From Myxococcales bacterium (GTDB lineage Bacteria; Myxococcota; Myxococcia; Myxococcales; 40CM-4-68-19), in NCBI GenBank assembly GCA_045802765.1, contig JBJMQJ010000204.1:1-43280 (forward strand): a stretch of DNA of 43,280 nt. Direction: 5' to 3'. Under the pieces are notes generated by a model. It was given only the letters and a program-made list of their open reading frames with translations. It ran no database searches and was not told where the DNA came from. Below, one piece after another: positions 3,501 to 43,249 of the stretch. Made by a program: the position numbers and the translations under genes. Every line of letters begins with the position of its first letter. Positions within the stretch are counted from its first letter, which is position 1.

Positions 3501-3607
3501 GGCGCTACCGGAAGCTGCGTGTACGCGGCCGCTCCGGCGAGCAGGACCGCCGCCGCGAGGAGCGAGGTGGCGACGGGCCGCTGGATGAACGGCGCGGAGA
3601 CGTTCAT
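521..3607 (-). CDS. mdtC: RND multidrug efflux permease, MdtC-type (1028 aa)
   Basis: An internal ATG at 3607 of the read-through ORF 521..5890 gives MNVSAPFIQRPVATSLL. The blocks LPVAPLPRVDFPTISV, PGASPETMASTVAAPLERRFGRIAG and ATGFVVDDAIVVTENIARY closely match E. coli MdtC as I recall it. An ATGA overlap (3604-3607) joins it to the upstream RND gene stop. Confidence 0.93.
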   Translation of the reverse strand: MNVSAPFIQRPVATSLLAAAVLLAGAAAYTQLPVAPLPRVDFPTISVNAALPGASPETMASTVAAPLERRFGRIAGLREVTSVSYLGSTGITLQFELDRDVDAAARDVQAAINAAGGDLPANLPTRPNYRKVNPADAPILILSLTSATVPLGQVFDQANTVLAQKISQVPGVGQVFVGGGQQPAVRVQADPQALAGLSLSLEDVRAALSNATVNQPKGAVSGSAQMRTLAANDQLLRAKDFAPLVVAYRNGAPVRLADVARVIDSVENERVAAWADAQRAVLIIIRRQPGANIIDVIERVKALLPQLSGSISPAIDVHVAQDRSQTIRASVADVQFTLVISVCLVVLVVFAFLRSIRATLVPTVAVPLSLVGTFGAMYLLSYSLDNLSLMALTIATGFVVDDAIVVTENIARYVEQGMPPREAALKGAKQIGFTIISITASLLAVFIPILLMGGIVGRLFREFAVTLSVAIAISAVVSLTLTPSMASRLLELRHGAEQGRVARAAEGAFERLLRGYDRSLRWVLDHDRLMLAVTLVTLGVSVALYVIVPKGLFPQQDTGALAGFSEAPQDVSFPTMKQRQEAVNAAVLSDRAVDHMVSFIGGNGPLNNGFMFVQLKPLGQRKRTADQVIADLRPKLARVEGINLYLQSVQDVRIGGRTSRTQYQYTLQDLNLAELLQWSPRVLEKLRTLPQLRDVNTDQQTAGLQLFVDVDRDTASRMGISPAVVDSTLYDAFGQRQVATMYTQVNQYRVVLEAKPELAAYPESLSGIYVRGQDATPVPLTAFARFEPRATSLSVNHQGQFPAVTLSFNLAPDVSLGQAVTAIHRAEQEIRMPPGLQASFQGTAQAFQDSLASEPLLVLTALLAVYIVLGVLYESLVHPVTILSTLPSAGVGALLALMLFKTELSIIALIGIILLIGIVKKNAIMMIDFAIEAERDQGLGTRDAIYQACLLRFRPILMTTLAAMLGGLPLALGHGVGSELRRPLGIAIVGGLLISQLLTLFTTPVVYLALDRLAQRRRKAELVPPVPA

Positions 3608-6600: not shown

Positions 6601-6708
6601 CGCGGCGACTGGCAGCTGCTTGTAGCCGATGAAGCCCGCGAGGAGCAGCCCCGCGGTGAGGAGCGAGGTGGCCACCGGCCGCCGGATGAACGGCTCGGAG
6701 ATGCTCAC
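3604..6708 (-). CDS. mdtB: RND multidrug efflux permease, MdtB-type (1034 aa)
   Basis: A GTG at 6708 inside ORF 3604..7869 gives VSISEPFIRRPVATSLL. The blocks TPLERQFGQMPGLSQMTS, YSKSNPADTPVLTVAV and STGFVVDDAIVMIENI match MdtB. A GTGA overlap (6705-6708) joins it to the membrane-fusion gene stop. Confidence 0.93.
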   Translation of the reverse strand: MSISEPFIRRPVATSLLTAGLLLAGFIGYKQLPVAALPQVDYPTILVSTLLPGASAETMASAVTTPLERQFGQMPGLSQMTSVSGFGSSQITLQFELSRNIDAAEQDVQAAINAASNLLPRTLPSPPTYSKSNPADTPVLTVAVSSESMPISQVADAADSILAQKISQVSGVGLVTIGGGQKPAVRVQADPSALAGTGLTLEDVRLALVAANVNQPKGNLDGPRQDFALATNDQLSDAGSFRPLIVAYRNGAPIRLRDVAQVADEVENAQLAGWANGKRAVIVNVQRQPGANVIQVADRVKNLLPQLQASLPQSLEVSILSDRTETVRASVDDVQFTLILTVLLVVAVIYVFLRSVRATIIPGIAVPLSLIGTFAVMYLCGYSLNNLSLMALTISTGFVVDDAIVMIENIARFIEHGDRPFEAALKGSKQIGFTIVSLTVSLVAVLIPLLFMGGIIGRLFREFAVTLAIAICVSAVLSLTLTAMMCAHLLKPRAEEREGRLARAFERGFAAMLAVYERSLGWVLAHQPETLLVTVATLLLTAVLAVAIPKGFFPLQDTGLVVGVSVAQPDASFARLANLQRTVDEAILSDPDVASVASSIGADGVNPTSNSGRVSITLKPRSQRKADVSEIIARLRPRLAEVPGITLYLQPVQDLTIETRTSRTQFQYTLEDADPSELQEWAPRMLEQMQKLPQLADVASDEESDGLQLKITIDRDTASRLGVSPQAVDDTLYDAFGQRQVTTIFTQLNQYRVILELSPEQAQHPEALDRLYVRTQSGDQVPFSAFAQAAETLAPLAMNHQGQFPAVTISFNLARGAALGDAVDAINALRTELGLPPGVRSEFAGTAQAFRESLASEPALILAALLTVYIVLGVLYESYIHPVTILSTLPSAGVGALLALIVCRTEFSVIALIGIILLIGIVKKNAIMMIDFALEAERDQGLSPTEAITQACLLRFRPIMMTTMAALLGGLPLALGQGTGSELRRPLGISIVGGLLVSQVLTLYTTPVIYLYMGRLGRLLRGRKAAQPEPQLSP

Positions 6709-7877
6709 CGCTCGGCCCCGATGGCGCGACCGCTGGGTTGGGCCGGCCGCGCCGCCGCCGGGCGGGGCGCGACCTTGGCGCCGGGCCGGAGCGCAGCGGC
6801 GCCGTCCGCCACCACCACGTCGCCGGGCGACAGGCCGCGGGCGATCCCCGCCACGTCTCCCTGGGTCAGCTCGACCTCGATGGGCCGCGGCTGGACCGTC
6901 TGGTCGGGTCCGACGACGTACGCGAAGGTGCCCTCGGGGCCGCGCTGCACCGCCGTCGTGGGCACCACGATGGCTCCCTTGCGCACGGTGAGCAGGAGGC
7001 GCGCCTTGACGAACTGGTTGGGCCACAAGGTCCGCTGCGGATTGGCGAAGGTAGCCTTCAGCCGCATGGTCGCGGTGTTCTGGTTGATCTGGTTGTCGAT
7101 GACGAGCAGCTCGCCGGTGCCGAGCTTCACGTTGCCGTCGCGGCCATAGGCTTCGACGGCGAGGGCGCCCAGCTCCATCTGCTGGGCGACCTGCGGCAGG
7201 TAGTCCTGGGGCAGCGTGAAGAGCACCGCGACCGGATCGAGCTGGGTGATGACCACGATGCCGCTCGCGTCGCTCGCCCTGATTAGATTTCCTGGATCGA
7301 CCAGCCGCACGCCGGTGACGCCTTCGATGGGCGAGGTGATGCGCGCGTAGTCCAGGTTGAGCCGGGCGCTGTCGATCTGCGACCGGTCGATGCGCGCCGC
7401 GCCCTCGAACTGGCCGACGGCGGCCTCCTGGTTGTCGACGTCCTGCTGCGAGACGAGCTTCTCGCGCAAGAGCTCGAGGTTGCGCGCCAGCGCAAGGCGG
7501 GCGGTACGGAGTTGCGCCGTGTCTCGCGTCAGTGCGCCGCGCGCCTGCTCGAGCTGCACCTGGAACGGCCGTGGATCGATCTGCGCGAGCACCTCTCCGC
7601 GGCGGACGACCTGGCCTTCGCGGAAGCTCACCGAATCGAGCCGGCCGTCGACTTGCGGCCGCACCGTGATGGTCTTCGCCGCGACGACGGTGCCCAGGCC
7701 GTCGAGGTAGATGGGCAGGTCCCGCTGCTGCACCTGCGCCGTCACGACCGGCACCTGGCGCTGCTGCGATTGGGCCGCGCCGCTGGGCGACGGCTGCTGC
7801 CGGCCGGACCTGCGCACGAACCAGATCGTGCCGGCGACGAGGAGAACGCCGAGCGCCACCATGATCCACCGCCTCAT
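6705..7877 (-). CDS. mdtA: RND efflux membrane-fusion (periplasmic adaptor) protein, MdtA-type (390 aa)
   Basis: It has an N-terminal TM/signal segment (MRRWIMVALGVLLVAG). HlyD-type blocks include VTAQVQQRDLPIYLDGLGTV, RPQVDGRL and YARITSPIEGVTG. It lies directly upstream of two RND genes. Confidence 0.9.
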   Translation of the reverse strand: MRRWIMVALGVLLVAGTIWFVRRSGRQQPSPSGAAQSQQRQVPVVTAQVQQRDLPIYLDGLGTVVAAKTITVRPQVDGRLDSVSFREGQVVRRGEVLAQIDPRPFQVQLEQARGALTRDTAQLRTARLALARNLELLREKLVSQQDVDNQEAAVGQFEGAARIDRSQIDSARLNLDYARITSPIEGVTGVRLVDPGNLIRASDASGIVVITQLDPVAVLFTLPQDYLPQVAQQMELGALAVEAYGRDGNVKLGTGELLVIDNQINQNTATMRLKATFANPQRTLWPNQFVKARLLLTVRKGAIVVPTTAVQRGPEGTFAYVVGPDQTVQPRPIEVELTQGDVAGIARGLSPGDVVVADGAAALRPGAKVAPRPAAARPAQPSGRAIGAER

Positions 7878-8377
7878 CGCGGCCTCCCTCTGACGCCGCC
7901 GGCGCGCTCAGCCGGACTGGCGCGGTCGGACGCTTCGAATCGAGCCACCGGCGCTCCCTGGAGGTTGCGGATGACCTTGCGCAGCGATTCGCGCAGCGCG
8001 GCCTCTTCGGCGGCGTTCATGCCCGTGACCACCCGCGCGCGAAGGTCATCCGCGATCGGGCGCAGCTTGCGGACGAGCTCCGACCCGCGGCGGGTGAGGC
8101 TCAGGCGCGAGCGCCGGCGGTCACCGGGGTCGAGGTCGAAGCGCACCAGGCCGCGGCGCACCAGCGCGGCGACGATCCGCGAAGCCGCGGGCGGATCGAT
8201 CCGCTGCCGGCGCGCGAGCTGTCCGAGCGAGCAGCCGGACATGCCCGCGACCGCGAGCAACGTCCAGAATTGTGGAGGGTTGAGGCGCAGCGGCGTGACG
8301 CGCTCCTGCACCGCGTGGCGCAGCGATCGGCGCGCCGCGGCGATGAGGAGGCCCACGTACTCTTGCGATTGCAACAT
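7874..8377 (-). CDS. MarR-family transcriptional regulator, first gene of the efflux operon
   Basis: It has a winged-helix MarR pattern (LNPPQFWTLLAVAGMSGCSLGQLARRQRIDPPAASRIVAALVRRGLVRFDLDPGDRRRSRLSLTRRG). I prefer the ATG at 8377 (MLQSQEYVG) over the track start at 8416. Its stop overlaps the mdtA start (TCAT at 7874-7877). Confidence 0.85.
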   Translation of the reverse strand: MLQSQEYVGLLIAAARRSLRHAVQERVTPLRLNPPQFWTLLAVAGMSGCSLGQLARRQRIDPPAASRIVAALVRRGLVRFDLDPGDRRRSRLSLTRRGSELVRKLRPIADDLRARVVTGMNAAEEAALRESLRKVIRNLQGAPVARFEASDRASPAERAGGVRGRPR

Positions 8378-8390
8378 TTGCGCGTTGCAA
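8369..8390. promoter_or_regulatory. Candidate MarR operator: inverted repeat TTGCAAC-N8-GTTGCAA
   Basis: The sequence is ttgcaacatttgcgcgttgcaa. The 7-bp arms are exact reverse complements. The repeat overlaps the proposed marR start codon (8375-8377) and sits in a TTGC-rich stretch (8363-8391). Confidence 0.4.
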
Positions 8391-8477
8391 CTAGTCCCCC
8401 GCGGAGCCCCGGTCAAGGCTTGCGGGCGGCCGGACGTGTTTCGGATTGTTGCGCTCTACGCTTGCCGAGTTGCCGCG

Positions 8478-27431: not shown

Positions 27432-27480
27432 CGAGCGATGTAGCCATGCAACCCCAAGCGCGGGCAAGTAGGATGTGCGG

Positions 27481-28452
27481 ATGCCTCGAAAGCGGCCTAC
27501 GACGAAGACCGGCCGCCCCCGCGCGCGCAAAGGCGTGAAGCTCAAGCCGACCGAGCTCGGACCCGAACAGCTGCGCCTTCCAGATCCACCGGCCGAGCTG
27601 CAGGCCCTCGCCCGGCAGGTCGAGGAGGACGGCGGGGCGGTGCTGGCGGCGTACCGGGAGCCGCTCGGCGGCCACGCGCTGCTCTTCACCGCACTGCCCG
27701 TGGACAAGGTCGAGCCCACGCCCTTCCAGCGCGACGTCTCCGACGCGCACGTGCTGAAGCTGACCCGCGCGATGGACAAGACGCGCCGGTATCTCGACCC
27801 CATCATCGCGGTCCGGGAGGACGGCGCCTACCGGACGCCGAATGGCGGTCACCGTCTCACTGCCTTGAAGGAGCTGGGCGCGAAGGCGGTGCTGGCGCTG
27901 CTGGTGCCCGAGCGCGCGGTGGCGTACCAGATCCTCGCGCTCAACATCGAGAAGGCGCACAACCTGCGGGAAAAGTCGCTGGAGGTCGCGCGCATGGTGC
28001 GGGACCTCGCGACGACGGACCCGGAACGCCGCGAGAGCGACCTGACGCTCGAGCTGGAGGAGCCCGCGCTGGTCACGCTCGGCTTCGCCTACGAGCAGCG
28101 CGGCCGGCTCTCCGGCGGGGCGTACGCGCCGGCCTTGCGCAAGGTCGACCAGTTCCTCGACTCGAAGCTTCCCCAGGCATTGCGCGAGCGAGAGCGCCGC
28201 GCGGCGCTGGTGCTCGAGCTGGACGAGGCGGTGGGCGCGGCCGTGGAGAAGCTCAAGGAGCGCGGCTTCACCTCGCCGTACCTCAAGGCGTTCGTGGTGG
28301 CGCGGGTGAACCCGCTGCGCTTCATGAAAGGGAGCCTCCCGGGGTTCGACGAGCTGCTCGCCACGATGACCAAGCGCGCGCGCGGCATGGACCCGGCGCG
28401 CGTTCGCACGGAGGACGTCGCGCGCAGCGGCGGCCCGCCCGACGCAGAATGA
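27481..28452 (+). CDS. ParB/Srx-superfamily N-terminal-domain protein (DGQHR-like NGGHR motif)
   Basis: VEPTPFQRD...YLDPIIAV...YRTPNGGHRLTALKELG matches the ParB-like nuclease/DGQHR core. It has a basic N-terminal tail. The start is the ATG at 27481 or the GTG at 27475. Confidence 0.65.
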   Translation: MPRKRPTTKTGRPRARKGVKLKPTELGPEQLRLPDPPAELQALARQVEEDGGAVLAAYREPLGGHALLFTALPVDKVEPTPFQRDVSDAHVLKLTRAMDKTRRYLDPIIAVREDGAYRTPNGGHRLTALKELGAKAVLALLVPERAVAYQILALNIEKAHNLREKSLEVARMVRDLATTDPERRESDLTLELEEPALVTLGFAYEQRGRLSGGAYAPALRKVDQFLDSKLPQALRERERRAALVLELDEAVGAAVEKLKERGFTSPYLKAFVVARVNPLRFMKGSLPGFDELLATMTKRARGMDPARVRTEDVARSGGPPDAE

Positions 28453-28507
28453 GCGGCGCCCCGCAAAGCAGGTGACTAGGTTCCCGGAACCGGAAAGGAC
28501 GGCATCC

Positions 28508-28909
28508 GTGCCCACGCTCGCGCTGACCAAGGACACCTTCAAGGACACGCTCGAGAAGGGCGGCGTGGTCTTCATCGACTGGTGGGCCGATTGGTGCGGG
28601 CCCTGCAAGGCGTTCGCGCCCGTCTACGAGCGGGCAGCCGAGGCGAATCCGGACGTCACGTTCGCCAAGGTCGACACGGAGGAGGAGCAAGAGCTTGCCG
28701 CGGCATTCGGGATCCGCTCCATTCCCACCCTGATGATCTTCCGCGACGGGATCCCGCTGTTCGCGCAGCCCGGCGCGCTTCCCCAGGAAATGCTCGACGA
28801 GCTGGTGGAGAAGGTCAAGGCGCTCGACATGGACGAGGTCCGCCGTTCGATCGCCGAGCAGCAGGCGCCGCAGCAGCAGGGACCCGGGCCGGGACGCCCT
28901 ACGACCTAG
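28508..28909 (+). CDS. trxA: Thioredoxin
   Basis: It has the WCGPC active site and the SIPTLMIF cis-Pro region. The GTG at 28508 lies 8 nt after GAAAGGA; the track start is 28472. It has a Gln/Pro-rich C-terminal tail. Confidence 0.9.
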   Translation: MPTLALTKDTFKDTLEKGGVVFIDWWADWCGPCKAFAPVYERAAEANPDVTFAKVDTEEEQELAAAFGIRSIPTLMIFRDGIPLFAQPGALPQEMLDELVEKVKALDMDEVRRSIAEQQAPQQQGPGPGRPTT

Positions 28910-29129
28910 ACCCGAGCGCCTTTTTCACGGCCGCGACGATCTCCTCCTCGTCCGGGAAGCCCAGCATGCGCTTCTCGATGACCACCTTTCCGTCCACGTC
29001 GACGAAGAACGAGCCGGTCGGGCCGACCTTCATTTCGGCCGGGATCCCGAGCTCCTTCTCCAGCGCGGCTGCCGCCCGGGCAGCCCGCGGCTTGTAGCCT
29101 CAAGAGTTGCAGTAGAAAATCGTGACCAT
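28899..29129 (-). CDS. SelW/Rdx-family selenoprotein (76 aa) with in-frame UGA (Sec) in a CxxU motif
   Basis: My hand translation from the ATG at 29129 is MVTIFYCNS-U-GYKPRAARAAAALEKELGIPAEMKVGPTGSFFVDVDGKVVIEKRMLGFPDEEEIVAAVKKALGSRS, ending at TAG 28899-28901. The TGA at 29100-29102 sits where Rdx proteins have the second Cys of CxxC. GxGxFxVxVDG and FP match the Rdx fold. GC3 bias continues across the TGA. The ORF track does not list this gene. Confidence 0.75.
29064..29089 (-). promoter_or_regulatory. Bacterial SECIS-like hairpin downstream of the UGA
   Basis: On the minus strand the hairpin is CGC-G-GGCUGCC / CGGGC loop / GGCAGCC-GCG. It has 7+3 bp with one bulged G and a G-rich apical loop. 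It begins 10 nt after the UGA. Confidence 0.6.
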
Positions 29130-29268
29130 GCGACGAGCTTAATCGGCAGGCGGTGCCCCGGCCATGTCACGAATCCTTGTGCGCCGGTGTGCGTCCAAGT
29201 TGCCCGCGATGTCCGCGGCATGAGATGCAGCGCCGCCCTATCGGTGGCGCTGGGGAAAGGAGGACGCG

Positions 29269-29967
29269 ATGATCGCCGTCCTTCCGTCGTCAGAGAGGTT
29301 CCACACCGACGCAGGCTGGCTCGATAGCCGGCACACGTTCTCCTTCGCCGACCACTACGATCCGGAGCGGCTGGGGTTCCGGGCGCTGCGGGTGATCAAC
29401 GACGACCGCGTCCAGCCCGCGCGCGGGTTCGGATCGCACTCGCACCGCGACATGGAGATCGTCACCTACGTGCTCTCGGGCGAGCTGGCGCACAAGGACA
29501 GCATGGGGAACGGATCAGTGATCCGGCCCGGCGACGTGCAGCGCATGAGCGCCGGCACCGGCGTGGTGCACAGCGAGATGAACCCGTCGCGCAGCGAGCC
29601 CGCGCACTTCCTGCAGATCTGGATCGTCCCCGACCGGAGCGGCCACCGTCCGGGGTACGAGCAGAAGGCGTTCGCGCAGGCGGACCTGCGGGGCAAGCTC
29701 CGGCTGGTCGCCTCGAGCGACGGCGGCGACGGCTCGGTGAGCATCCACCAGGACGCCTCGATGTATGCGGGCCTCCTCGAGCCGGGCGATTGCGTCTCCC
29801 AGCAGCTGCGCGCTGGCCGCCATGCCTGGGTCCACGTCGCGCGCGGCTCGGTGGACCTGAACGGGAAGACGTTGCGCGAGGGCGACGGCGCCGCGATTTC
29901 CGACGAGCCGCGCCTCGACCTGACCGCCAACGACAGCTCGGAGATCCTGCTCTTCGACCTCGCCTAG
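29269..29967 (+). CDS. Pirin-family protein (bicupin)
   Basis: The metal-binding cupin motif is HSHRDMEIVTYVLSGE...H...E, with WLDSRHTFSF at the N-terminus. A strong RBS GGAAAGGAGGA lies upstream. Confidence 0.9.
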   Translation: MIAVLPSSERFHTDAGWLDSRHTFSFADHYDPERLGFRALRVINDDRVQPARGFGSHSHRDMEIVTYVLSGELAHKDSMGNGSVIRPGDVQRMSAGTGVVHSEMNPSRSEPAHFLQIWIVPDRSGHRPGYEQKAFAQADLRGKLRLVASSDGGDGSVSIHQDASMYAGLLEPGDCVSQQLRAGRHAWVHVARGSVDLNGKTLREGDGAAISDEPRLDLTANDSSEILLFDLA

Positions 29968-31481
29968 ACGGCCTCCACGTCCTCGTCGACACGGAAGCCG
30001 GCGCGTTCCAGGGACTGGCGCAGGTCGGCCTTGTGGACGGCCTTGGAGAGGGCGTCCTTGGGAAGGACTTGCTTCGAGCGGACCAGCTCGAGCAGCGCGT
30101 CGTTCATCGTCTGCATGCCGGCGCCCCGCGCCGTCTGCATGATCGAGGCGATCTGGAAGGTCTTTCCCTCGCGGATGAGATTCGAGACCGCGCTGTTGCA
30201 GAGCAGCACTTCCTGCGCCGCCACGCGCCCGCCGCCGATCTTCTTGCACAACATCTGGGTGATGACGCCCTTGAGCGACTCGCTCAGCATGGTGCGGATC
30301 TGCTCCTGCCGGTCGGCGGGGAACTGATCGATGATGCGGTCCACGGTGCTCGGCGCCGTGTTGGTGTGCAGGGTCCCGAAGACCAGGTGGCCGGTCTCGG
30401 CCGTCTCCAGCGCGATGGAGATGGTCTCCAGGTCGCGCATCTCGCCGACCAGCACGATGTCGGGGTCCTCGCGCAGCGCGGCGCGGAGCGCGTGCTTGAA
30501 GCTCTGGGTATGCACGCGGATCTCGCGCTGGTTCACCAGGCACTTCTTGTTCGGATGCACGAACTCGATCGGGTCCTCGATGGTGATGATGTGGTCGCTC
30601 CGGGTGCGGTTGACGTAATCGATCATCGCCGCGAGGGTCGTCGACTTGCCCGATCCGGTGGGGCCCGTCACCAGCACCAGTCCCTTCGCCAGGTGGCACA
30701 GCTCGAGAAGGTGCGGCGAAAGGCCCATTTCTTCCGCGGAGCGGATCTGGTTGGGGATCACGCGCAGCACGGCGCCGATGCCGCGGCGATCGGCGAACAC
30801 GTTGACGCGGAACCGGGCGGCCTCCGTCTCGTGGGCGAAGTCGGTGTCCTTGATCTGCTCCCACTCCTGGCGGTTCTTCTCCGGCGCGATGGACCAGATC
30901 ATCTCGCGCAAGCGGGAAGGGTCTGGCGCGCCGTGGCCTGCGAGCGGCACCACGTCGCCGTCCTTGCGCAAGCATGGGTCGCAGCCGCTGGACAGGTGGA
31001 GGTCGGAGGCACGGTGCTCGAGCATCAGGTCGAGTAGCTGCGCCATCGCCGCCGCCGGGTCCTCGGGAGCCGGCATGGCCTGGATCCCGTGGGCCTCCTC
31101 GCCGGTCGCCGGACGCCGTGCGATGGCGAGCTTCGGCGCAGCCGCCGCCTCGGCGGGCCTTCCACGCGCATCCTTCCGCGCCTGCGCGACCGCGATGACG
31201 CCCGAGACGCGATCGCGGCCCGAGTCGAACCGGATGGTCACTTCGCCGGACGGCGCGAGGTAGCGGAACTTCAGCGCACCGTGACCCGGAAAAGCGCCCT
31301 TCAGCTCGGGCGGGACGAGCTCGCTGAAGGCGCCGATGATCTGCGCGGTGGTGAGGGACTGCCGCAGCACCGGACGGGAGCCGGAAACGGTGCGCAGCAG
31401 CGCGCCCGTGCCCGTCTCCATGATGAGCTCGCTGCCCGGTTCCTTGAAGAGCAGATCGATGTAGGCGTCCAGGCGCGGCAA
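29964..31481 (-). CDS. PilT-family type IV pilus retraction ATPase paralogue with a ~140-aa N-terminal extension (505 aa)
   Basis: It has Walker A GPTGSGKST, the Asp box/Walker B DPDIVLVGEMRD, the His box TGHLVFGTLHT and the AIRNLIREgK-like SAVSNLIREGK. The start is TTG at 31481, 7 nt after GGAGG. The extension resembles a degenerate second PilT N-domain. Confidence 0.85.
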   Translation of the reverse strand: MPRLDAYIDLLFKEPGSELIMETGTGALLRTVSGSRPVLRQSLTTAQIIGAFSELVPPELKGAFPGHGALKFRYLAPSGEVTIRFDSGRDRVSGVIAVAQARKDARGRPAEAAAAPKLAIARRPATGEEAHGIQAMPAPEDPAAAMAQLLDLMLEHRASDLHLSSGCDPCLRKDGDVVPLAGHGAPDPSRLREMIWSIAPEKNRQEWEQIKDTDFAHETEAARFRVNVFADRRGIGAVLRVIPNQIRSAEEMGLSPHLLELCHLAKGLVLVTGPTGSGKSTTLAAMIDYVNRTRSDHIITIEDPIEFVHPNKKCLVNQREIRVHTQSFKHALRAALREDPDIVLVGEMRDLETISIALETAETGHLVFGTLHTNTAPSTVDRIIDQFPADRQEQIRTMLSESLKGVITQMLCKKIGGGRVAAQEVLLCNSAVSNLIREGKTFQIASIMQTARGAGMQTMNDALLELVRSKQVLPKDALSKAVHKADLRQSLERAGFRVDEDVEAV

Positions 31482-31505
31482 GTCGGAACCTCCGGTCGCG
31501 AGCGG

Positions 31506-31961
31506 TCAGCGGAGCGTCACGCGCTGCACGTGGCGCTTGTTCACGAGCGCGATCCGCTCGCCCTCCACCAGCGCGAGGAACGGCGCGGGGTCGTTGAGAT
31601 AGTCGACCACGCGGCAGTTCTCGACCGGCAGCACGTAGCTGATGAGGCCGGTGAGCACCTGCCCGTTGGTGAGCACGACCTCCACCTCGTGCTCGAGCGG
31701 CAGGTTCAATTCGTCCACGTCCCAGAGCGGCCCGTCGACGCGGGCGACCGCGATGGACGAGCGGGCGAGGAACGTCATTGCCTCGGCCTTGCAGTCGATG
31801 GCCGGCAGGAACTCGCGCGGCCCGTTGAGCAGATCGCAGACGCGTTCCGGCCCGCCGTGACTGGTGCGCTCGGCGAGGAACACCGAGAAGAGGCGCGTCT
31901 CGCCGTCGCGCCCGGTCACCTCGACGTCGCCGCGATGCTTGGGGATGCGCAGCCGATCCAC
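31506..31961 (-). CDS. Hypothetical protein, likely co-transcribed with the PilT paralogue
   Basis: A GTG start at 31961 gives a 151-aa ORF with good GC3 bias. It ends 24 nt before the pilT-like start. No secure family motif was found. Confidence 0.5.
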   Translation of the reverse strand: MDRLRIPKHRGDVEVTGRDGETRLFSVFLAERTSHGGPERVCDLLNGPREFLPAIDCKAEAMTFLARSSIAVARVDGPLWDVDELNLPLEHEVEVVLTNGQVLTGLISYVLPVENCRVVDYLNDPAPFLALVEGERIALVNKRHVQRVTLR

Positions 31962-32019
31962 GGCTCGGCTGATCGGCCGCCCTGCGGCAGGCTTGAGCGC
32001 CCATGCTTACGCTAGGTGG

Positions 32020-36255: not shown

Positions 36256-36639
36256 CTACGGCTCGCCGCGCGCCGCCTTCCACACCGACTGCAGCAGCTC
36301 CTCGGGGAACACGGGCTTCAGCAGCACCTCCGCGGCGCCGAGCTCCCGCGCGGCCCGCAGCCGCGCGCCGACCGCGGAAACCGCGATCACCGGCGCGCGC
36401 GGAGCGGGGCGCGCCGCATGCCGGCGGATCAGCTCCAGGCCGTCGAGCACCGGCATCACCAGGTCGGTGATGACGACCTGCGGCCGGAGCTTGTCGATGA
36501 GCTCGAGGCCTTCGAGGCCGTCATGCGCGACCGCGACCTGCAAGCCTTCTTGCTCCAGCGCCGCCTGCGTGAGCTCGGCGAGGTCCGCATCGTCCTCCAC
36601 CAACACGACCAGGAGCTGCTCTCGGGTTCCGGTTTGCAT
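36256..36639 (-). CDS. Stand-alone response-regulator receiver protein
   Basis: An internal ATG at 36639 gives MQTGTREQLLVVLVEDD. The phospho-acceptor region is VVITDLVMP, with IAVSA and LLKP following. There is no output domain. Confidence 0.8.
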   Translation of the reverse strand: MQTGTREQLLVVLVEDDADLAELTQAALEQEGLQVAVAHDGLEGLELIDKLRPQVVITDLVMPVLDGLELIRRHAARPAPRAPVIAVSAVGARLRAARELGAAEVLLKPVFPEELLQSVWKAARGEP

Positions 36640-36742
36640 GACTCGTGGCGCAGGATGCCTGGCAAAGGTGACGCGCGAAGTTCCTGCAGACGCGCGTCCG
36701 GCCCTCGCACCGCTGACCGCTTGGCCGCCCGCCCGCCCTTCC

Positions 36743-36797
36743 TGCGACGCGTTGCGTTGTCGCACGAGGCGGGTAGTCTCGTCGCATCGGTGTCGCA
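36743..36797. promoter_or_regulatory. GTCGCA repeat cluster in the divergent receiver/gvp intergenic region
   Basis: An inverted pair TGCGAC (36743-36748) / GTCGCA (36759-36764) is followed by two direct GTCGCA copies at 36781 and 36792 (11-nt spacing). Confidence 0.3.
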
Positions 36798-36820
36798 TAC
36801 GTACACACTGGCCGTGAATT

Positions 36821-36834
36821 GTTCGCCAGCGAAC
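36821..36834. promoter_or_regulatory. Perfect dyad GTTCGC-CA-GCGAAC upstream of the gvpJ-like gene
   Basis: The 6-bp arms are exact reverse complements. The dyad lies about 80 nt upstream of the 36915 start, in a locally AT-richer patch. Confidence 0.3.
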
Positions 36835-36914
36835 ACAGACCGCCGCCAGGCCGGCACACGGGCGGGCGGCCCCTTGCGCGACCGGGCAGGGGTCGGTCTA
36901 CAACCTGTATTCCG

Positions 36915-37253
36915 ATGCCCACCGAGTTGCAGGTAGGAAGACACCAGGCAAGCGGTCTCGTGGACGTGCTCGACCGCGTACTCGACAAGGGGCTCGTCAT
37001 CGCCGGCGACATCAAGGTGTCGCTCGCCGAGGTCGAGCTCCTCACCGTGCGCATCCGCCTCATCGTCTGCTCGATCGACAAGGCGCAGGAGATCGGCCTC
37101 GACTGGTGGAAGTACGACCATCACCTCGCCCCGGGGCGCAACCGCGACCAGGCGGAGAACGAGGCCCTGCGCGAACAGGTCCGGCTACTCGAGCGGAAGC
37201 TCGAAACCCTCACCCGCCCTACCGCTATCCGGCGCAGCGCGCCGCGACGCTAA
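36915..37253 (+). CDS. Gas vesicle protein of the GvpA/J/M family (GvpJ-like, 112 aa)
   Basis: An internal ATG at 36915 is used. [43 protein letters not shown] is the GvpA/J core. A C-terminal coiled tail follows. Confidence 0.88.
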   Translation: MPTELQVGRHQASGLVDVLDRVLDKGLVIAGDIKVSLAEVELLTVRIRLIVCSIDKAQEIGLDWWKYDHHLAPGRNRDQAENEALREQVRLLERKLETLTRPTAIRRSAPRR

Positions 37254-37268
37254 CCTGGAGATTCGACC

Positions 37269-37580
37269 ATGCCCGTCGAAAGAGCATCTGGCGGATCCAG
37301 CCTGATCGACGTTCTCGATCGGGTCCTGGACAAAGGCATCGTGATCGACGCCTGGGTCCGCGTCTCGCTGGTCGGCATCGACCTCATCACCGTCGAGGCA
37401 CGCGTCGTGGTCGCGTCCATCGACACCTACCTCAAGTATTCCGAAGCCGTGGCGCAAACGACGACCGTCGGCTCGAGGGCGGTCGAGGCGCGCGCGCACG
37501 AAGCGGTTCTCGCCGAGAATGCGGCGCTCAAGGCGCAGCTTGCCGCGGGAAACCGGGCCAAGCGCCGGCGCACGGAGTAA
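37269..37580 (+). CDS. gvpA: Gas vesicle structural protein GvpA (103 aa, extended C-terminal tail)
   Basis: [52 protein letters not shown] is nearly identical to the canonical GvpA core. An RBS GGAGA lies 8 nt upstream. Confidence 0.95.
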
Positions 37581-37586
37581 AGGGCA

Positions 37587-39731
37587 TTGGCGCGCCCGGC
37601 ACCGGCGTCCGCGACCACCCGGCCGACGGAGTCGACCGCGCTGGCGCGCCTTGCTCTCGCCGAGATCCTCCTCGCGAGCGACGACGCCGGCGAGTGCGCG
37701 CAGCGCGCCGTGGATTGGCTGGCGCAGAACGGCGGCGCCAGGGCGGCGGTCTGCGCGCTGGTCGACCCGGAGACGGACGAGCTGCGCGCGCTGGCCGGCT
37801 TTGGCGTCACACCCGCGCAACTGAAGCGGTTCTCCGTGCACCGCGACGAGGAAGCGCACCCGTTGTCCCTCGCGCTGTCCCGCTCCGCGCCGATCGTCTT
37901 CCAGACTGGGAAGGCGCGCGGGGCGCCGTCCCTGGGACCCGGGGCATTCGTCGCGGTGCCGCTGCCCATCGGCGAGCGTCCCGAAGCGCGGGTGGGGATC
38001 CTGCTGGCGGGCCCGCCCTCCACGGCCCTCGAGCGCGAGGCGCGCTGGCTCGCCGATGCGCTGGGGCAGAAGCTCGTCCATCTGCGGACGATGCGCCGCG
38101 TCGTCGAGTCCGAGCAACGCCTGCAGCGCGAGCGGGAGTTCCTGCTCAGCGTCGTCAACTCGGTGCCCGACCCGGTGCTGCTCACCGACACCGAAGGCCG
38201 CATCATCATCTCCAACACCCGCGCCGACGCGCTCTTCGTCGCGCGCGAGGAGCAGAGCGAGGGCCGCCAGCGCGCGGTCACCTTGAACAACATGCTCTTC
38301 TCGGCCGCGCTCTCGCGGCAGGCCATCGACGAGCCGGAGGCGGCCCGGCGCGAGCTCTTGCTGGTGAACCCGACCGAGGGCAGCGACCTGCTCTTCGAGC
38401 TGCTCTCCACGACCGTGCAGCACCCGCGCGAGGGCACCGGCTTCGTCTCCATCTTGCGCAACGTCACCGACCTGCGCGCCGCCACCGAGCAGATCGAGGA
38501 GAACTACCGCAAGCTGCGCATTGCCGAGGCGGACGTGCGCGCCGAGCGCGACCGGCTGGACCTGATCATCGACTCGGTGGCCGATCCGATCCTGGTGACC
38601 GACCCGTCGGGCAAGATCCTCTTGATGAATGCTCCGGCGGAGCGCCTCTTCACCGCCCCGGAGGGCGAGGGCGACGAGATGCAGCGCGCGGTGCGCACCA
38701 ACGACGCGCACTTCTCCTCGTTCGTCTCCAACGTCTTCCTCTCGGGCGGGGCGTCGCGCTTCCGGGGAGAGATCAGCCTCGCCGACCCCCACGCCGGCAG
38801 GCCGCTGCCGGTCGAGGCGATCAGCGGCAAGGTGCTGAGCGAGCACGGCGAGGTCACCGCGGTGGTGACCATCCTGCACGACCGCACCGAGGCGCTGGAC
38901 AAGGCGCGCCTCTACGAGCAGCTCGAGCGCGCGTCGAAGGAGCTGCAGGAGAAGGTGCGCGAGGCGACCGGCGAGCTGGTCCGGCGCAACGAGCTGCTGC
39001 AGCGGCAAGCGATCGAGCTGGAGCAGGCCTCCCAGCTCAAGTCGCAGTTCCTCGCCAACATGTCGCACGAGTTCCGCACGCCCTTGAACGCGATCCTCGG
39101 CTACACCAGCATGCTGCTGCAGGGCGTGAACGGCGAGATGACGCCGCCGCAGAAAAAGAACCTCGGCCGCGTCGATTCGAACGCCAAGCACCTCTTGAAC
39201 ATCATCAACGACCTGCTCGACATCAGCCGGATCGAGGCCGGCAAGATGCCGCTGCACCTCGAGCAGTTCGAGCTTGCCACGCTGCTCGGCGAGCTGCTGG
39301 CCGAGGTGGAACCGCTCATCCAGAAGGCGCACCTCTCCGCGACGACCGAGCTGGCGGGCGACCTGCCGGCCGTGCACGGCGACCGCCAGAAGGTCAAGCA
39401 GATCGCGCTCAACCTCCTCACCAACGCCATCAAGTTCACCCCGCAGGGTGCGATCCGGGTGAGCGCCGGTTACGATGCCGCGCGGGACGAGATTTCGCTC
39501 GCCGTGAAGGACACGGGGATCGGCATCGCGGAGAAGGACCAGCAGAAGATCTTCGACGATTTCCGGCAGGCCGACGACTCCGTCACGCGCCAGTACGGCG
39601 GCGCGGGGCTGGGGCTTTCCATCTGCCGGCGACTGGCGAACATGCTGGCGGGCCGCATCACCGTGGAGAGCAAGCTCGGCGCGGGGTCCATCTTCACCCT
39701 GCACGTACCCCGGCAAGGGAGGAGGCCATGA
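37587..39731 (+). CDS. Cytoplasmic sensor histidine kinase (GAF-like N-terminus, two PAS-like modules, HisKA, HATPase_c)
   Basis: The start is TTG at 37587. The H-box is SHEFRTPLNAILGY, the N-box is LLTNAIKFT, and the G-boxes are DTGIGI and GGAGLGLSI. PAS-like repeats are LLSVVNSVPDPVLLTDTEGRIIISN and LDLIIDSVADPILVTDPSGKILLMN. No TM segments were seen. Confidence 0.9.
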   Translation: MARPAPASATTRPTESTALARLALAEILLASDDAGECAQRAVDWLAQNGGARAAVCALVDPETDELRALAGFGVTPAQLKRFSVHRDEEAHPLSLALSRSAPIVFQTGKARGAPSLGPGAFVAVPLPIGERPEARVGILLAGPPSTALEREARWLADALGQKLVHLRTMRRVVESEQRLQREREFLLSVVNSVPDPVLLTDTEGRIIISNTRADALFVAREEQSEGRQRAVTLNNMLFSAALSRQAIDEPEAARRELLLVNPTEGSDLLFELLSTTVQHPREGTGFVSILRNVTDLRAATEQIEENYRKLRIAEADVRAERDRLDLIIDSVADPILVTDPSGKILLMNAPAERLFTAPEGEGDEMQRAVRTNDAHFSSFVSNVFLSGGASRFRGEISLADPHAGRPLPVEAISGKVLSEHGEVTAVVTILHDRTEALDKARLYEQLERASKELQEKVREATGELVRRNELLQRQAIELEQASQLKSQFLANMSHEFRTPLNAILGYTSMLLQGVNGEMTPPQKKNLGRVDSNAKHLLNIINDLLDISRIEAGKMPLHLEQFELATLLGELLAEVEPLIQKAHLSATTELAGDLPAVHGDRQKVKQIALNLLTNAIKFTPQGAIRVSAGYDAARDEISLAVKDTGIGIAEKDQQKIFDDFRQADDSVTRQYGGAGLGLSICRRLANMLAGRITVESKLGAGSIFTLHVPRQGRRP

Positions 39732-40132
39732 CCCGAGAGCCGCTCGTCCTGGTCGTCGACGACTTCCAGGACAACCGGGAGATGTACGCCGAGTACCTCG
39801 CCTTCTCCGGGTTCCGCGTCATCCAGGCGGCCAACGGGAAGGAGGCGCTCGACCAGGCCTTCGCCAACCGGCCAGACATCATCATCATGGATCTCTCGCT
39901 TCCCGTCATGGACGGCTGGGAAGCGACGCGCAGGCTCAAGGCCGATCAGCGCACCAACGCAATCCCCGTGGTCGCCCTGACCGGACACGCCATGCACGGA
40001 CATTCGAAGGGCGCCATGGAGGCGGGCTGCGATTCGTTCGTCGCCAAGCCGTGCCTTCCCGACCAGTTGGTCGCCGAGATCCGCAAGATGCTCTCTTCAT
40101 CACGGATGAACGCGGCGAAGGCGGAGGGGTAG
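39728..40132 (+). CDS. Stand-alone response-regulator receiver protein
   Basis: An ATGA overlap joins it to the kinase stop. It has LVLVVDDFQDNREMY, IIIMDLSLPVMDG, VVALTGHA and VAKP. There is no output domain. Confidence 0.9.
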   Translation: MTREPLVLVVDDFQDNREMYAEYLAFSGFRVIQAANGKEALDQAFANRPDIIIMDLSLPVMDGWEATRRLKADQRTNAIPVVALTGHAMHGHSKGAMEAGCDSFVAKPCLPDQLVAEIRKMLSSSRMNAAKAEG

Positions 40133-40133
40133 G

Positions 40134-41021
40134 ATGCCGGAAGCGCAGAAGAAGAAGCGCGGGGCCAAGGCGTCACCCCGCGTGCGCTCGAAGGAGGGCG
40201 CCGGAGCGCGCGCGCTGGCGCCCGAGGTGCCCTCGGACACCGGAACGAAGACCGAAAACGGCGGGCGCGGCAAGTACGTCTACTGCATCATCCAGAGCGG
40301 CGAGGCGTTGCGCTTCGGTCCGCTCGGGATCGGCTCGGATCCGGCCGACGTGCACACGGTCAACTACAAGGACATCGCCGCGGTGGTGTCCGACACTCCC
40401 ATCGAGGTGCACGATCCCACCCGGGAGAACGTGCTCGCCCACGAGCGCGTCAACGAGACGGTGATGCGCAAGTACACCGTCATCCCCATGTCGTTCGGGA
40501 CCGTCTTCAAGACGCACGACGACATCGTCGAGCTCTTGCGCTCCGCGTACGACGCGTTCCACGACGTGCTGGTGAAGATGCAGGACAAGCTGGAGTTCGG
40601 CCTCAAGGTCCTCTGGGACCGCGACGTGATGATCCGCGAGATCGAGCGCGCCGACGAGGACATCCGCAACTTGAAGACCCAGATCGGAGCGCAGAAGGGG
40701 TCCACCTACTTCGCGCGCATGCAGTACGGGCGCCTGGTCGACGCGGCGCTGCAGTCGATGTCCGAGAAGTACGTGGCCGAGATCTTCGAGGCGCTGCGCG
40801 ACGTGGCGGTCGCCTCCCGGGCCAACAAGCCCATCGGCGACAAGATGATCATGAACGCGGCGTTCCTCGTGTCGCGCGACAAGGAGCTGTCGTTCGACCA
40901 CCGCGTCAAGCAGATCGGCGCCAAGCACGACAAGCTGACCTTCAAGTACACGGGGCCGTGGCCGCCGTACAACTTCGTCAACATCCGGCTGAAGCTGGAG
41001 CGCGCCAAGGAAGGAAAGTGA
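40134..41021 (+). CDS. Gas vesicle protein GvpF/GvpL family (295 aa)
   Basis: It has YVYCII...FGPLGIG, IAAVVSD, HERVNETVM and YTGPWPPYNF. This N-terminal and C-terminal pattern is typical of GvpL_GvpF. It has a basic N-terminal tail. Confidence 0.88.
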   Translation: MPEAQKKKRGAKASPRVRSKEGAGARALAPEVPSDTGTKTENGGRGKYVYCIIQSGEALRFGPLGIGSDPADVHTVNYKDIAAVVSDTPIEVHDPTRENVLAHERVNETVMRKYTVIPMSFGTVFKTHDDIVELLRSAYDAFHDVLVKMQDKLEFGLKVLWDRDVMIREIERADEDIRNLKTQIGAQKGSTYFARMQYGRLVDAALQSMSEKYVAEIFEALRDVAVASRANKPIGDKMIMNAAFLVSRDKELSFDHRVKQIGAKHDKLTFKYTGPWPPYNFVNIRLKLERAKEGK

Positions 41022-41305
41022 TCGTCCTCGACCGCATGCTGGTGGGCGGCATCAAGTTCGTCCTCGGCAAGATCGCCGCGGCCGCCGACTCCGAGCTGAA
41101 CGACGACTCGCGGCTGCGCGAGGAGCTGCTGGCGGCGCAGATGCGGCTCGAGCTGGGCGAGATCGACGAAGAGGGGTTCCGCGCGCTCGAGGCGGACCTG
41201 CTCGCCCGGTTGCGCGCAATCCGCGAGCGCCAGCGCGGCGAGGCGCTCGATCCCGGCGAGATGAAGGTGACCGGCGTCGAGGCCACGATCCACGGCGAGG
41301 AGTGA
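41018..41305 (+). CDS. gvpG: Gas vesicle protein GvpG (95 aa)
   Basis: A GTG at 41018 overlaps the gvpF/L stop (GTGA). VIVLDRMLVGGIKFVLGKIA...LREELLAAQMRLELGEIDEEGFRALEADLLARL matches the GvpG pattern seen in haloarchaeal GvpG. Confidence 0.8.
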   Translation: MIVLDRMLVGGIKFVLGKIAAAADSELNDDSRLREELLAAQMRLELGEIDEEGFRALEADLLARLRAIRERQRGEALDPGEMKVTGVEATIHGEE

Positions 41306-41383
41306 GGAGAGCGGCTTGCGGCGTGCGGCTCGCGGCTTGCGGTCGTCTGGGTCGGTTGCGGGCCTGCGCTGACGGGGAAGACC

Positions 41384-43249
41384 GTGGTCTTCTCCTTTTT
41401 CGCCGGCAAGGGTGGAGTCGGGAAGACGACCTGCGCCGCGGCGCACGCGCTTGCGCTCGCAGCGCGCGGCCGTCGGGTCCTGGCGGTGTCCACCGATCCC
41501 GCCCATTCGCTGGGAGACGCGCTGGGAGAGCGGCTCTCCGCGCGGCCCCGGCGAGTGTCTCGAGGCTTGTTCGCGGTGGAGCTGGACGCCGACCGCGCGC
41601 TCTCGCGCTGGTTCCAGAAGCGGGAGCGCTCCTTCCGGGTGCTCGCCTCGCGGGGGACGTACCTCGACGACGAGGACGTCGATCAGCTCCTCTCGCAGTC
41701 GCTGCCCGGCGTCGACGAGCTGATCGGCCTTTTGGAGCTCACCCGCCTAGCGGCCGCCGGCGAGTACGACCTCGTGGTGGTCGACACCGCGCCGACCGGG
41801 CATACGCTGCGGCTGCTCGCGATGCCCGATACGCTGGGCCGGCTCGCGCGCGTGCTGGGCGATCTGCAGCAGAAGCACCGCTGGATGTCGCAATCGCTGC
41901 GCGGGCGGTACGTGCCCGATTCGAGCGATGCCGTCATCGCCGAGATCGAGCGGCAAGCGGAAGATCTCCGCGCGCTGCTGCGCGATCGGGACCGGTGCGC
42001 GTTCCACTGGGTGATGCTGGCGGAGGAGCTGGCGCTCCGGGAGGCGGTGGACGGCGTCGCGGGGCTTGCGCGGCTCGGCGCGCACCTGGGCGAGCTGGTC
42101 GTGAACCGCGTGACCCCCGCACCGCGCTCGGCCTGCGCTCTGTGCGCCGGCCGGCGCGCGGAGGAGGCGCGCATCCTGCGTGCGGCTCGGGCGGCATTCC
42201 CCGGAGTGCCGCTGCGCCTCGTGCCCACGGCCGACGAGGAGCCGCGGGGACTTGCGGCCTTGCGGCGGCTCTCCTCCGCACGGCCGCGGCCGCCGCGGCC
42301 AGGACGGACATGGCCGTGGCCCACCCGCGGTACGGCCTGGGCCGCCCCGGACGGAGTGCGGCTGCTGCTGTTCGGCGGCAAGGGCGGGGTAGGGAAGACG
42401 ACCTGCGCGGCGGCGTGCGCGCTGCACCTCGCGCGGAGGGGAAAGCGCGTGCTCGTCCTCTCCACCGACCCCGCGCATTCGCTGGGCGACGTCCTCGGCC
42501 GTTCGCTCTCCGACGAGCCGCGGGAGGTCGCGGCGCGGCTCGTCGCGCGCGAGCTGGATGCAGACGGGGCGTTCGCTTCGCGCCGCGAGCAGTACCGCCG
42601 CAGCGTCGACGAGCTGTTCGACGCGCTCCGCGGCGGGGCGCGCTTCGACGCGACCTTCGATCGGCAGGTGGTGCAGGACCTGATCGAGCTCGCGCCGCCA
42701 GGGATCGACGAGCTGTTCGCGCTCTTCGCGGTGATCGAGGCGCTCCAGGACGGGTTCGACCGGGTCGTCGTCGACACCGCCCCGACGGGGCATGCGCTGC
42801 GCCTGCTGGAGATGCCGGAAAAGGCGCTCGGCTGGATCCACGCCCTGCTCGCCATTCTCCTCAAGTACCGCCGCGTGATCGGCCTCGGCGACCTCGCGCG
42901 GACCCTCACGACCACCGCTCGCGAGCTGCGCGAGCTGCAGGACTTGATCCGCGACCCGGCGCGGGCATTGTTCGTCCCGGTCACGCGCGCCGCCGCCCTC
43001 CCGCGCATGGAGACCGAGCGCCTCCTGCGCGCGCTGCGGCGGCTCGGCATCCCCACCGGACCGGTGCTGGTCAACGCGCTCACGCCGCCGGGGTGCGCCC
43101 GCTGCGGTCGAGCGGCCGCCGCCGAGACGAGGGAGGTCGAGGCGATCCGCAGGCGGACCCCTGCTATGCTGGCCGCCCCGGCCGTGACGCCTCCTCCGCG
43201 AGGACCGCGGCAGCTCCTGGCGTTCGGCCGGACCTGGGCCTCTCGATGA
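41384..43249 (+). CDS. Fused tandem ArsA/Get3-family ATPase (two complete halves, 621 aa)
   Basis: A deviant Walker A GKGGVGKTT occurs at aa 8-16 and 332-340. STDPAHSLGD occurs at aa 36-45 and 360-369. DTAPTGH(T/A)LRLL occurs at aa 134-145 and 464-475. CxxC occurs at aa 251-254 (nt 42134-42145) and aa 571-574 (nt 43094-43105). Confidence 0.88.
   Translation: MVFSFFAGKGGVGKTTCAAAHALALAARGRRVLAVSTDPAHSLGDALGERLSARPRRVSRGLFAVELDADRALSRWFQKRERSFRVLASRGTYLDDEDVDQLLSQSLPGVDELIGLLELTRLAAAGEYDLVVVDTAPTGHTLRLLAMPDTLGRLARVLGDLQQKHRWMSQSLRGRYVPDSSDAVIAEIERQAEDLRALLRDRDRCAFHWVMLAEELALREAVDGVAGLARLGAHLGELVVNRVTPAPRSACALCAGRRAEEARILRAARAAFPGVPLRLVPTADEEPRGLAALRRLSSARPRPPRPGRTWPWPTRGTAWAAPDGVRLLLFGGKGGVGKTTCAAACALHLARRGKRVLVLSTDPAHSLGDVLGRSLSDEPREVAARLVARELDADGAFASRREQYRRSVDELFDALRGGARFDATFDRQVVQDLIELAPPGIDELFALFAVIEALQDGFDRVVVDTAPTGHALRLLEMPEKALGWIHALLAILLKYRRVIGLGDLARTLTTTARELRELQDLIRDPARALFVPVTRAAALPRMETERLLRALRRLGIPTGPVLVNALTPPGCARCGRAAAAETREVEAIRRRTPAMLAAPAVTPPPRGPRQLLAFGRTWASR

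Follow-up and report, generated by a model that had tools for sequence, protein, structure and literature searches.

A gene for a selenoprotein W (SelW)-like protein of the Rdx family, overlooked by open reading frame (ORF) finders, is very probably present in the genome of a Myxococcales bacterium (assembly GCA_045802765.1). It is located on contig JBJMQJ010000204.1, of which the whole stretch that was analyzed, positions 1 to 43,280, is referred to here as the window. The gene occupies positions 28899–29129 of the minus strand, from an ATG at 29127–29129 to a TAG stop at 28899–28901, and consists of 76 codons plus this stop, among which is one in-frame TGA (29100–29102). The TGA is the last codon of the stretch TGC-AAC-TCT-TGA (29100–29111), which would encode a CxxU redox motif, U being selenocysteine (Sec). 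When the TGA is decoded, the product is 76 amino acids (aa) long. It passes the cut-offs of its family only with the residues preceding the TGA, the TGA is kept in every related locus of which the DNA was read, and it is followed by a hairpin with covarying base pairs.

Read from 29129 to 28899, the minus strand gives ATG GTC ACG ATT TTC TAC TGC AAC TCT TGA GGC TAC AAG CCG and so on up to TAG. This translates to MVTIFYCNS*GYKPRAARAAAALEKELGIPAEMKVGPTGSFFVDVDGKVVIEKRMLGFPDEEEIVAAVKKALGSRS*, with KKALGSRS as the C-terminus. An earlier reading of the sequence, the first-pass annotation, had proposed the ATG at 29129, the TGA at 29100–29102, the TAG at 28899 and a protein of 76 aa, and these coordinates were right on re-reading. 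Its frame and stop stand as well, but the protein ending that it gave, KKAL, lacks the residues GSRS. It had also described the region as empty in the ORF track, and the mechanical ORF list indeed contains just a 44-aa ATG ORF in this frame (28899–29033, with the ATG at 29033). After the TGA, the GC content per codon position is 0.68/0.44/0.91, which is typical for genes of this window with its overall GC content of 70.6%. The bias toward G or C at third positions that had been claimed for both sides of the TGA is thus clear downstream (0.91). Upstream, seven out of nine codons end in G or C, which is consistent with coding, although the stretch is too short to be conclusive by itself.

To assign the product to a family, profile tests were made with Cys substituted at the TGA and with the curated cut-offs. 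The 76-aa product scores 46.9 bits against the Pfam family Rdx (PF10262, cut-off 22.6), covering profile positions 2–73 of 74, and 44.2 bits against the NCBIfam family TIGR02174 (CXXU_selWTH, cut-off 34.2), covering positions 1–74 of 74. The 44-aa ORF after the TGA, tested alone, scores 17.3 bits against Pfam Rdx and remains under the cut-off of 22.6; therefore, the residues preceding the TGA belong to the domain. The assignment to the Rdx/SelW family that had been made from the letters alone is borne out by both profiles, PF10262 and TIGR02174, only if the nine residues preceding the TGA are included. The cut-off of the NCBIfam equivalog NF041051 (SelTWH_Campy) is not reached (63.4 bits versus 88), and the protein, although related to this Campylobacter-type equivalog, falls outside it. 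When compared with solved structures, both the single protein and a profile of 15 orthologues match exclusively Rdx proteins. The matches of the orthologue profile are 3dex (2e-14) and 2ljk (2.7e-10), followed by 2oka, 2fa8, 2obk, 2ojl, 2npb and 2p0g. In these comparisons, the TGA column falls on the second Cys of the motifs CEPC (MIEN1, 2ljk) and CTQC (SAV_2001, 3dex). Mouse SelW (chain 2npb) has a Cys there, and GYKP follows it, like in the window protein.

A word-index protein search returned 38 close homologues, all of them 41–57 aa long and covering 51–72% of the query. Several carry the JGI label ‘selenoprotein W-related protein’. This is the pattern that would be expected from gene callers halting at the TGA. 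The underlying DNA was read for 14 loci from genomes and metagenomes and then for seven further ones, which gives 22 sequences including the window. The TGA is present at the identical column in 21/21 related loci, and thus in 22/22 sequences, in the context YCNS-TGA-GYKPRAARAAA and variants of it. In all 14 loci with a mapped start, an ATG is found 9–14 codons upstream of the TGA. The upstream frame and the TGA are also both present in the DNA behind the short entries P0016 and P0022 (loci L016–L021). Homologues with a conserved protein that begins only past the TGA had been named beforehand as the finding that would speak against a selenoprotein; wherever the DNA was read, the short entries proved to be truncations by the gene caller. 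The Tyr and Cys codons that precede the TGA show synonymous changes only (TAC/TAT and TGC/TGT), and the codons before the TGA thus appear to evolve like coding sequence.

These relatives originate from soil and other metagenomes, and include Deltaproteobacteria and Myxococcales metagenome-assembled genomes (MAGs), a Myxococcus isolate and an Acidobacteria MAG. Their protein identity to the window sequence is 46–91% in 13 of the 14 loci and 37% in the Acidobacteria MAG. Among named records, the nearest is VBKO01000126, a MAG from soil labelled ‘Deltaproteobacteria bacterium’, the best-matching segment of which is 89% identical. Exact look-ups of the 44-aa ORF and of the window's thioredoxin in public assemblies gave no match. 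An exhaustive HMMER search, for which the query consisted of the 66 residues after the TGA alone, resulted in 58 cluster representatives, about 35 of which are truncated, the match starting at residue 1–5, while 22 are full-length. Eighteen full-length homologues were aligned at the TGA column, and they read CxxC (12), CxxW (4), CxxS (1) and CxxE (1). For one of the CxxW homologues, P0059 (locus L015, 480–707), the DNA was read and has a TGA, which the source pipeline had rendered as Trp. The proposed Sec residue thus aligns with Cys, as the first-pass annotation had suggested checking: it coincides with the second Cys of CxxC in the 12 full-length homologues as well as in 2ljk and 3dex, and with a Cys in 2npb.

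Elsewhere in the window, TGA is a normal stop codon. It ends 21 of the 31 window genes, therefore the genetic code is not reassigned. It also serves as the true stop of many orthologous SelW-like genes, and a genome-wide reassignment of TGA was ruled out on both counts.

Downstream of the TGA, the RNA can fold into a hairpin. In the window sequence, the minimum free energy (MFE) fold is an extended hairpin on the minus strand (29060–29090), with 12 pairs, two 3′ bulges and an energy of −20.2 kcal/mol. Its inner part (29088–29063) contains ten pairs and one bulge, begins 10–12 nucleotides (nt) after the TGA and has the loop CGGGC. This reproduces the bulged GC hairpin of 10 base pairs (bp) that had been proposed to start about 10 nt downstream. 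The hairpin was compared between relatives in an ungapped alignment of 15 sequences (A1), in which the conserved core is a 7-bp stem at 29067–29085 (minus strand). In the window, it is built from the 5′ arm GGCUGCC (29085–29079), the loop CGGGC (29078–29074) and the 3′ arm GGCAGCC (29073–29067). The stem pairs A1 columns 30–36 with 42–48, i.e., positions +15 to +21 with +27 to +33 after the UGA, and is kept in 15/15 sequences. The apical loop, which begins 21 nt past the UGA, reads C-G-(G/U)-G-(C/U) throughout, i.e., CGKGY. The same 7-bp stem is recovered independently by RNAalifold. The lower stem (A1 pairs 25–28 with 51–55) was considered as part of the conserved structure and rejected, as it is broken in 2–11 of the 15 relatives. 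Only the window and the relatives nearest to it have this extension, while pair 29/50 is GC or GU in all sequences.

Within the core, two pairs covary. Pair 30/48 is GC in eight sequences, AU in five and UG in one, with a single mismatch, and pair 33/45 is CG in eight, UG in four, UA in two and GC in one (n = 15 for both). Pair 34/44 is GC in 14/15 sequences and the other four core pairs are invariant. Paired cells make up 85% of the total, versus 33–67% when the partners are slid by 1–3 columns, and the observed covariation score is attained in 0/500 shuffles. The columns that covary (30, 33, 45 and 48) all fall on four-fold degenerate third positions, in codons for Arg and Ala. Degenerate third positions also occupy columns 36 and 42, which nevertheless hold an invariant C and G in 15/15 sequences. 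Column 39, in the loop, is a degenerate third position of an Arg codon and holds exclusively G or T. These patterns at degenerate sites cannot be accounted for by the protein sequence, but they can by an RNA structure.

The features of bacterial Sec insertion sequences (SECIS elements; bSECIS) have been summarized in a 2026 review: a loop of 3–9 nt, an upper stem of 4–16 bp, a G in the first two loop positions that is usually followed by G or U, a distance of 16–37 nt from UGA to loop, and an MFE of at most −7.5 kcal/mol (PMC13188914, Fig. 2A). The corresponding measurements are a loop of 5 nt, a stem of 7 bp, loops starting with CGG or CGU, a spacing of 21 nt and a core MFE between −10.7 and −16.1 kcal/mol in 15/15 sequences. 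The hairpin thus agrees with the published description of a bacterial SECIS on every point. The earlier suspicion of a SECIS-like hairpin has in this way gained a fit to the published model as well as covariation at two pairs.

Based on these elements, a mechanism can be proposed. Translation would begin at the ATG at 29129, and the UGA at 29102–29100 would be decoded as Sec instead of being read as a stop. The recoding would be caused by the downstream mRNA hairpin, with its 7-bp G/C stem and its CGGGC loop 21 nt past the UGA, which would recruit to the ribosome SelB in complex with guanosine triphosphate (GTP) and Sec-tRNA(Sec). In the predicted thioredoxin-like fold, assigned by sequence matches to solved Rdx structures, the CxxU motif would be positioned at the end of strand β1. 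The product is most likely a thiol-dependent oxidoreductase that would cycle between a selenol/thiol and a selenenylsulfide form, with the product of the convergent thioredoxin gene as a plausible reductant.

Some results weigh against Sec insertion at this locus. Within the 43-kb window, ARAGORN detects 0 tRNA genes, tRNA-Sec included, and a Pfam scan of the 36 ORFs that cover the window contains no SelA, SelB or SelD domains. The energy of the hairpin is unremarkable against dinucleotide shuffles in this sequence of 70.6% GC (z = −0.49). A single-sequence hairpin energy proves nothing, however, and the significance of the structure comes from the comparison with relatives. A scan of the window with Rfam at the gathering score gives zero matches, eukaryote-type SECIS families included, and an Rfam scan of 28850–29250 by E-value gives chance-level matches to unrelated families only. 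To our knowledge, Rfam does not have a model for this type of bacterial SECIS, because of which its null result says little. A literature search on Sec use in Myxococcus gave nothing useful. The absence of the Sec machinery from the window favors a reading in which the UGA is translated as Cys, Trp or Gly, by a suppressor tRNA or by a Cys-charged Sec-like pathway, without the use of selenium. The codon of one relative has indeed been rendered as Trp by a public pipeline. However, as TGA is an ordinary stop in the window and also ends the SelW-like genes of many relatives, any read-through must depend on a local signal. The one present here fits the model of a SelB-type SECIS in all respects (PMC13188914), and bacterial SelW-like proteins are established Sec proteins (PMC1088965; PMC1794560). 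A selenium-free read-through is consequently given a very low probability.

The unremarkable energy score is also what would be seen if the hairpin were functionless and simply resulted from the GC-rich codons of the conserved PRAARAAA peptide. PRAA-like residues occur at this position in some Cys homologues, e.g., LPRAAW in SAV_2001, therefore the conservation lies partly at the protein level. On the other hand, the PRAARAAA string is not kept in the aligned CxxC homologues, and the paired positions include four-fold degenerate sites that are free of protein constraint. At such sites, the pairs 30/48 and 33/45 covary with retention of pairing; columns 36 and 42 do not vary at all, and loop column 39 is limited to G or T, which matches the SECIS consensus of a G followed by G or U. 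A by-product of this kind is very improbable. The same hairpin bears on the possibility that the locus is a pseudogene, i.e., a CxxC Rdx gene in which a nonsense mutation from TGC or TGT to TGA has abolished the full-length product. Such a change requires one base substitution, and CxxC homologues exist, but the TGA is the same in all 22 sequences, of which 20 have a protein identity of 46–91% to the window, the frames on both of its sides are intact, the Tyr and Cys codons upstream vary synonymously, and a covarying hairpin is conserved behind it. Nonsense mutations, whether independent or inherited, are not expected under such constraint, and the chance of a pseudogene is negligible. Finally, the real product could be a protein of 41–57 aa that starts past the TGA, in which case the nine upstream codons would be an untranslated leader. 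This is how all 38 close database homologues have been called, and in the window the ATG at 29033 opens the 44-aa ORF. This ORF by itself scores below the Pfam cut-off, as described above, and the short protein would be devoid of strand β1, of the redox motif and of the beginning of helix α1, which are present in every Rdx protein. Moreover, the called starts differ between orthologues, whereas the layout of an ATG, 8–13 codons and the TGA is constant, and the upstream codons evolve as coding sequence. The probability of this short product is accordingly very slight.

As a Sec-encoding gene, the locus can be compared with known systems. In the Sargasso Sea data, the SelW-like CXXU proteins were the most abundant selenoprotein family, with 48 genes (PMC1088965). 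Bacterial SelW-like proteins have been reported in Geobacter, Desulfotalea, Desulfotomaculum, Alkaliphilus and Symbiobacterium, and Cys homologues of them are few in organisms that use Sec (PMC1794560). As to what these proteins do, descriptions to date go no further than a probable role in redox reactions. Like the members of this bacterial family (TIGR02174), the window protein is about 75 aa long and has CxxU directly after β1. Its gene shares with them a SECIS in the coding region after the UGA, with a G in a small apical loop, and the scarcity of close Cys forms. The window clade differs from the known members in its origin, i.e., soil MAGs of the Deltaproteobacteria/Myxococcota type, Myxococcus and an Acidobacteria MAG, in a stretch, UGYKPRAARAAA, that is strictly conserved and serves as SECIS at the same time, and in a conserved neighborhood of pirin, SelW-like and thioredoxin genes. 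The window gene has every testable defining feature of the bacterial SelW-like family, which has been known for two decades.

Judged by sequence, mammalian SELENOW (2npb) is of the same fold family, Rdx (E = 5.9e-4), and it has the same CxxU-GYKP signature. In the eukaryotic SelW gene, the SECIS is located in the 3′ untranslated region, contains a kink-turn and is read by SBP2 and eEFSec, whereas the window gene has its signal within the coding region, as a bacterial hairpin of the SelB type. The Cys-containing Rdx proteins MIEN1/C17orf37 (2ljk), Streptomyces SAV_2001 (3dex) and Atu0228 (2fa8) are the best sequence matches among solved structures, and in the alignments the CxxU of the window protein falls on their CxxC. 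They differ in having Cys in place of Sec, without UGA or SECIS, and several of them, with additional residues at the termini, measure about 100 aa. The textbook bacterial SECIS is that of E. coli fdhF, a hairpin just 3′ of the UGA inside the ORF, in which a loop G and U/G are exposed for SelB. Compared to the fdhF element, the stem in the window is shorter (7 conserved bp), the loop sequence CGKGY is different and no conserved bulged U was identified.

The SelW-like gene is flanked by two genes on the plus strand. On its 3′ side lies a convergent thioredoxin gene of the WCGPC form (28472–28909; Pfam Thioredoxin, 90.8 bits), and the 3′ ends of both genes overlap by 11 nt (28899–28909), or by 8 nt in L016–L021. 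On its 5′ side lies a divergent pirin gene (29269–29967; Pfam Pirin, 130.9 bits), with which it shares an intergenic region of 139 nt upstream of both. Thioredoxin adjoins the SelW-like gene in 8/14 loci and in all six of L016–L021. Pirin does so in 8/14 loci and in 5/6 of L016–L021, the contig of L018 ending on the pirin side. Next to thioredoxin, the plus strand encodes a 325-aa protein without a Pfam match (27475–28452). In seven related loci, it is 77–96% identical and always found in the same position. The recurrent order in the relatives, the six syntenic metagenome contigs L016–L021 included, is thus a divergent pirin gene, the SelW-like gene, a convergent thioredoxin gene with an overlap of 8–11 nt, and the gene of the 323–325-aa protein. 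In Myxococcus, the Acidobacteria MAG and two other loci the neighbors differ, therefore the link with thioredoxin is a lead for the function of the protein and not evidence. It is conceivable, though rather unlikely, that a lineage of soil deltaproteobacteria or myxobacteria has, in the trio of pirin, SelW-like protein and thioredoxin, a dedicated redox module in which thioredoxin would recycle the selenenylsulfide of the SelW-like protein. The synteny of the trio is confined to fairly close relatives and may reflect mere shared ancestry. If true, such a module would for the first time link bacterial SelW-like proteins to a concrete partner and pathway.

Two motifs are found repeatedly in front of the SelW-like ATG in the relatives: GGATTCG/CGATTCG about 45 nt before it (window 29170–29176, minus strand) and TTAAGCT/TTATCCT, which ends 7 nt before it (window 29136–29142, minus strand). 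They may represent the promoter of an mRNA that is leaderless or has a very short leader, or an operator shared with pirin. No Shine–Dalgarno sequence is visible before the ATG in the region 29130–29268 (minus strand), and a scan for the sigma-70 consensus upstream of the gene found nothing.

Beyond pirin, the minus strand contains a PilT-like ATPase ORF (29964–31505) and, in frame with it, a DUF6812 ORF (31509–32006), from which it is separated by a single TGA (31506–31508). A second recoding event at this TGA was considered and rejected; the codon was read as an ordinary stop, the DUF6812 domain ending 6 residues before it. The pair is missing in L016–L021, where a gene for a 280-aa hypothetical protein takes its place. 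At the other end of the window, the Pfam scan identified two tandem AcrB-type RND transporters on the minus strand (around 521–3600 and 3604–6700). Next to these pumps lies a gene for a membrane-fusion protein (6705–7877), itself adjacent to that of a MarR regulator (7877–8455), both on the minus strand.

A gas-vesicle gene set (36777–43249) occurs in this soil-type genome of 70.6% GC. It comprises two GvpA-type genes (36777–37250 and 37254–37577), a PAS/GAF histidine kinase (37587–39731), GvpL/F (40134–41021) and a tandem ArsA-like ATPase (41384–43249), and a response regulator is encoded upstream of the set (36259–36897, minus strand). Further genes in the window encode a PBP1-type penicillin-binding protein, a DUF190 protein, a radical SAM protein, an S-adenosylmethionine (SAM) methyltransferase, an alpha/beta hydrolase, an Fe/Mn superoxide dismutase, M20, M48 and M1 peptidases, an EAL-domain response regulator, a metallo-beta-lactamase-fold protein, a DUF72 protein, a pyridoxal phosphate (PLP)-dependent enzyme, a uracil-DNA glycosylase (UDG) and an iron permease.

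The gene leaves the general knowledge of Sec decoding and of the Rdx family unchanged, and its value lies chiefly in annotation. Public protein sets systematically lack or misrepresent the SelW-like gene and its relatives, and recognition of the decoding of the TGA would restore a complete 76-aa redox protein. The locus is in addition a case of overlapping constraints, as the PRAARAAA peptide and the putative SECIS stem share 24 nucleotides, which is visible at the four-fold degenerate sites. For the organism, the gene would imply Sec decoding in an aerobic-looking soil bacterium, the window of which also encodes an Fe/Mn superoxide dismutase, a thioredoxin and a pirin.

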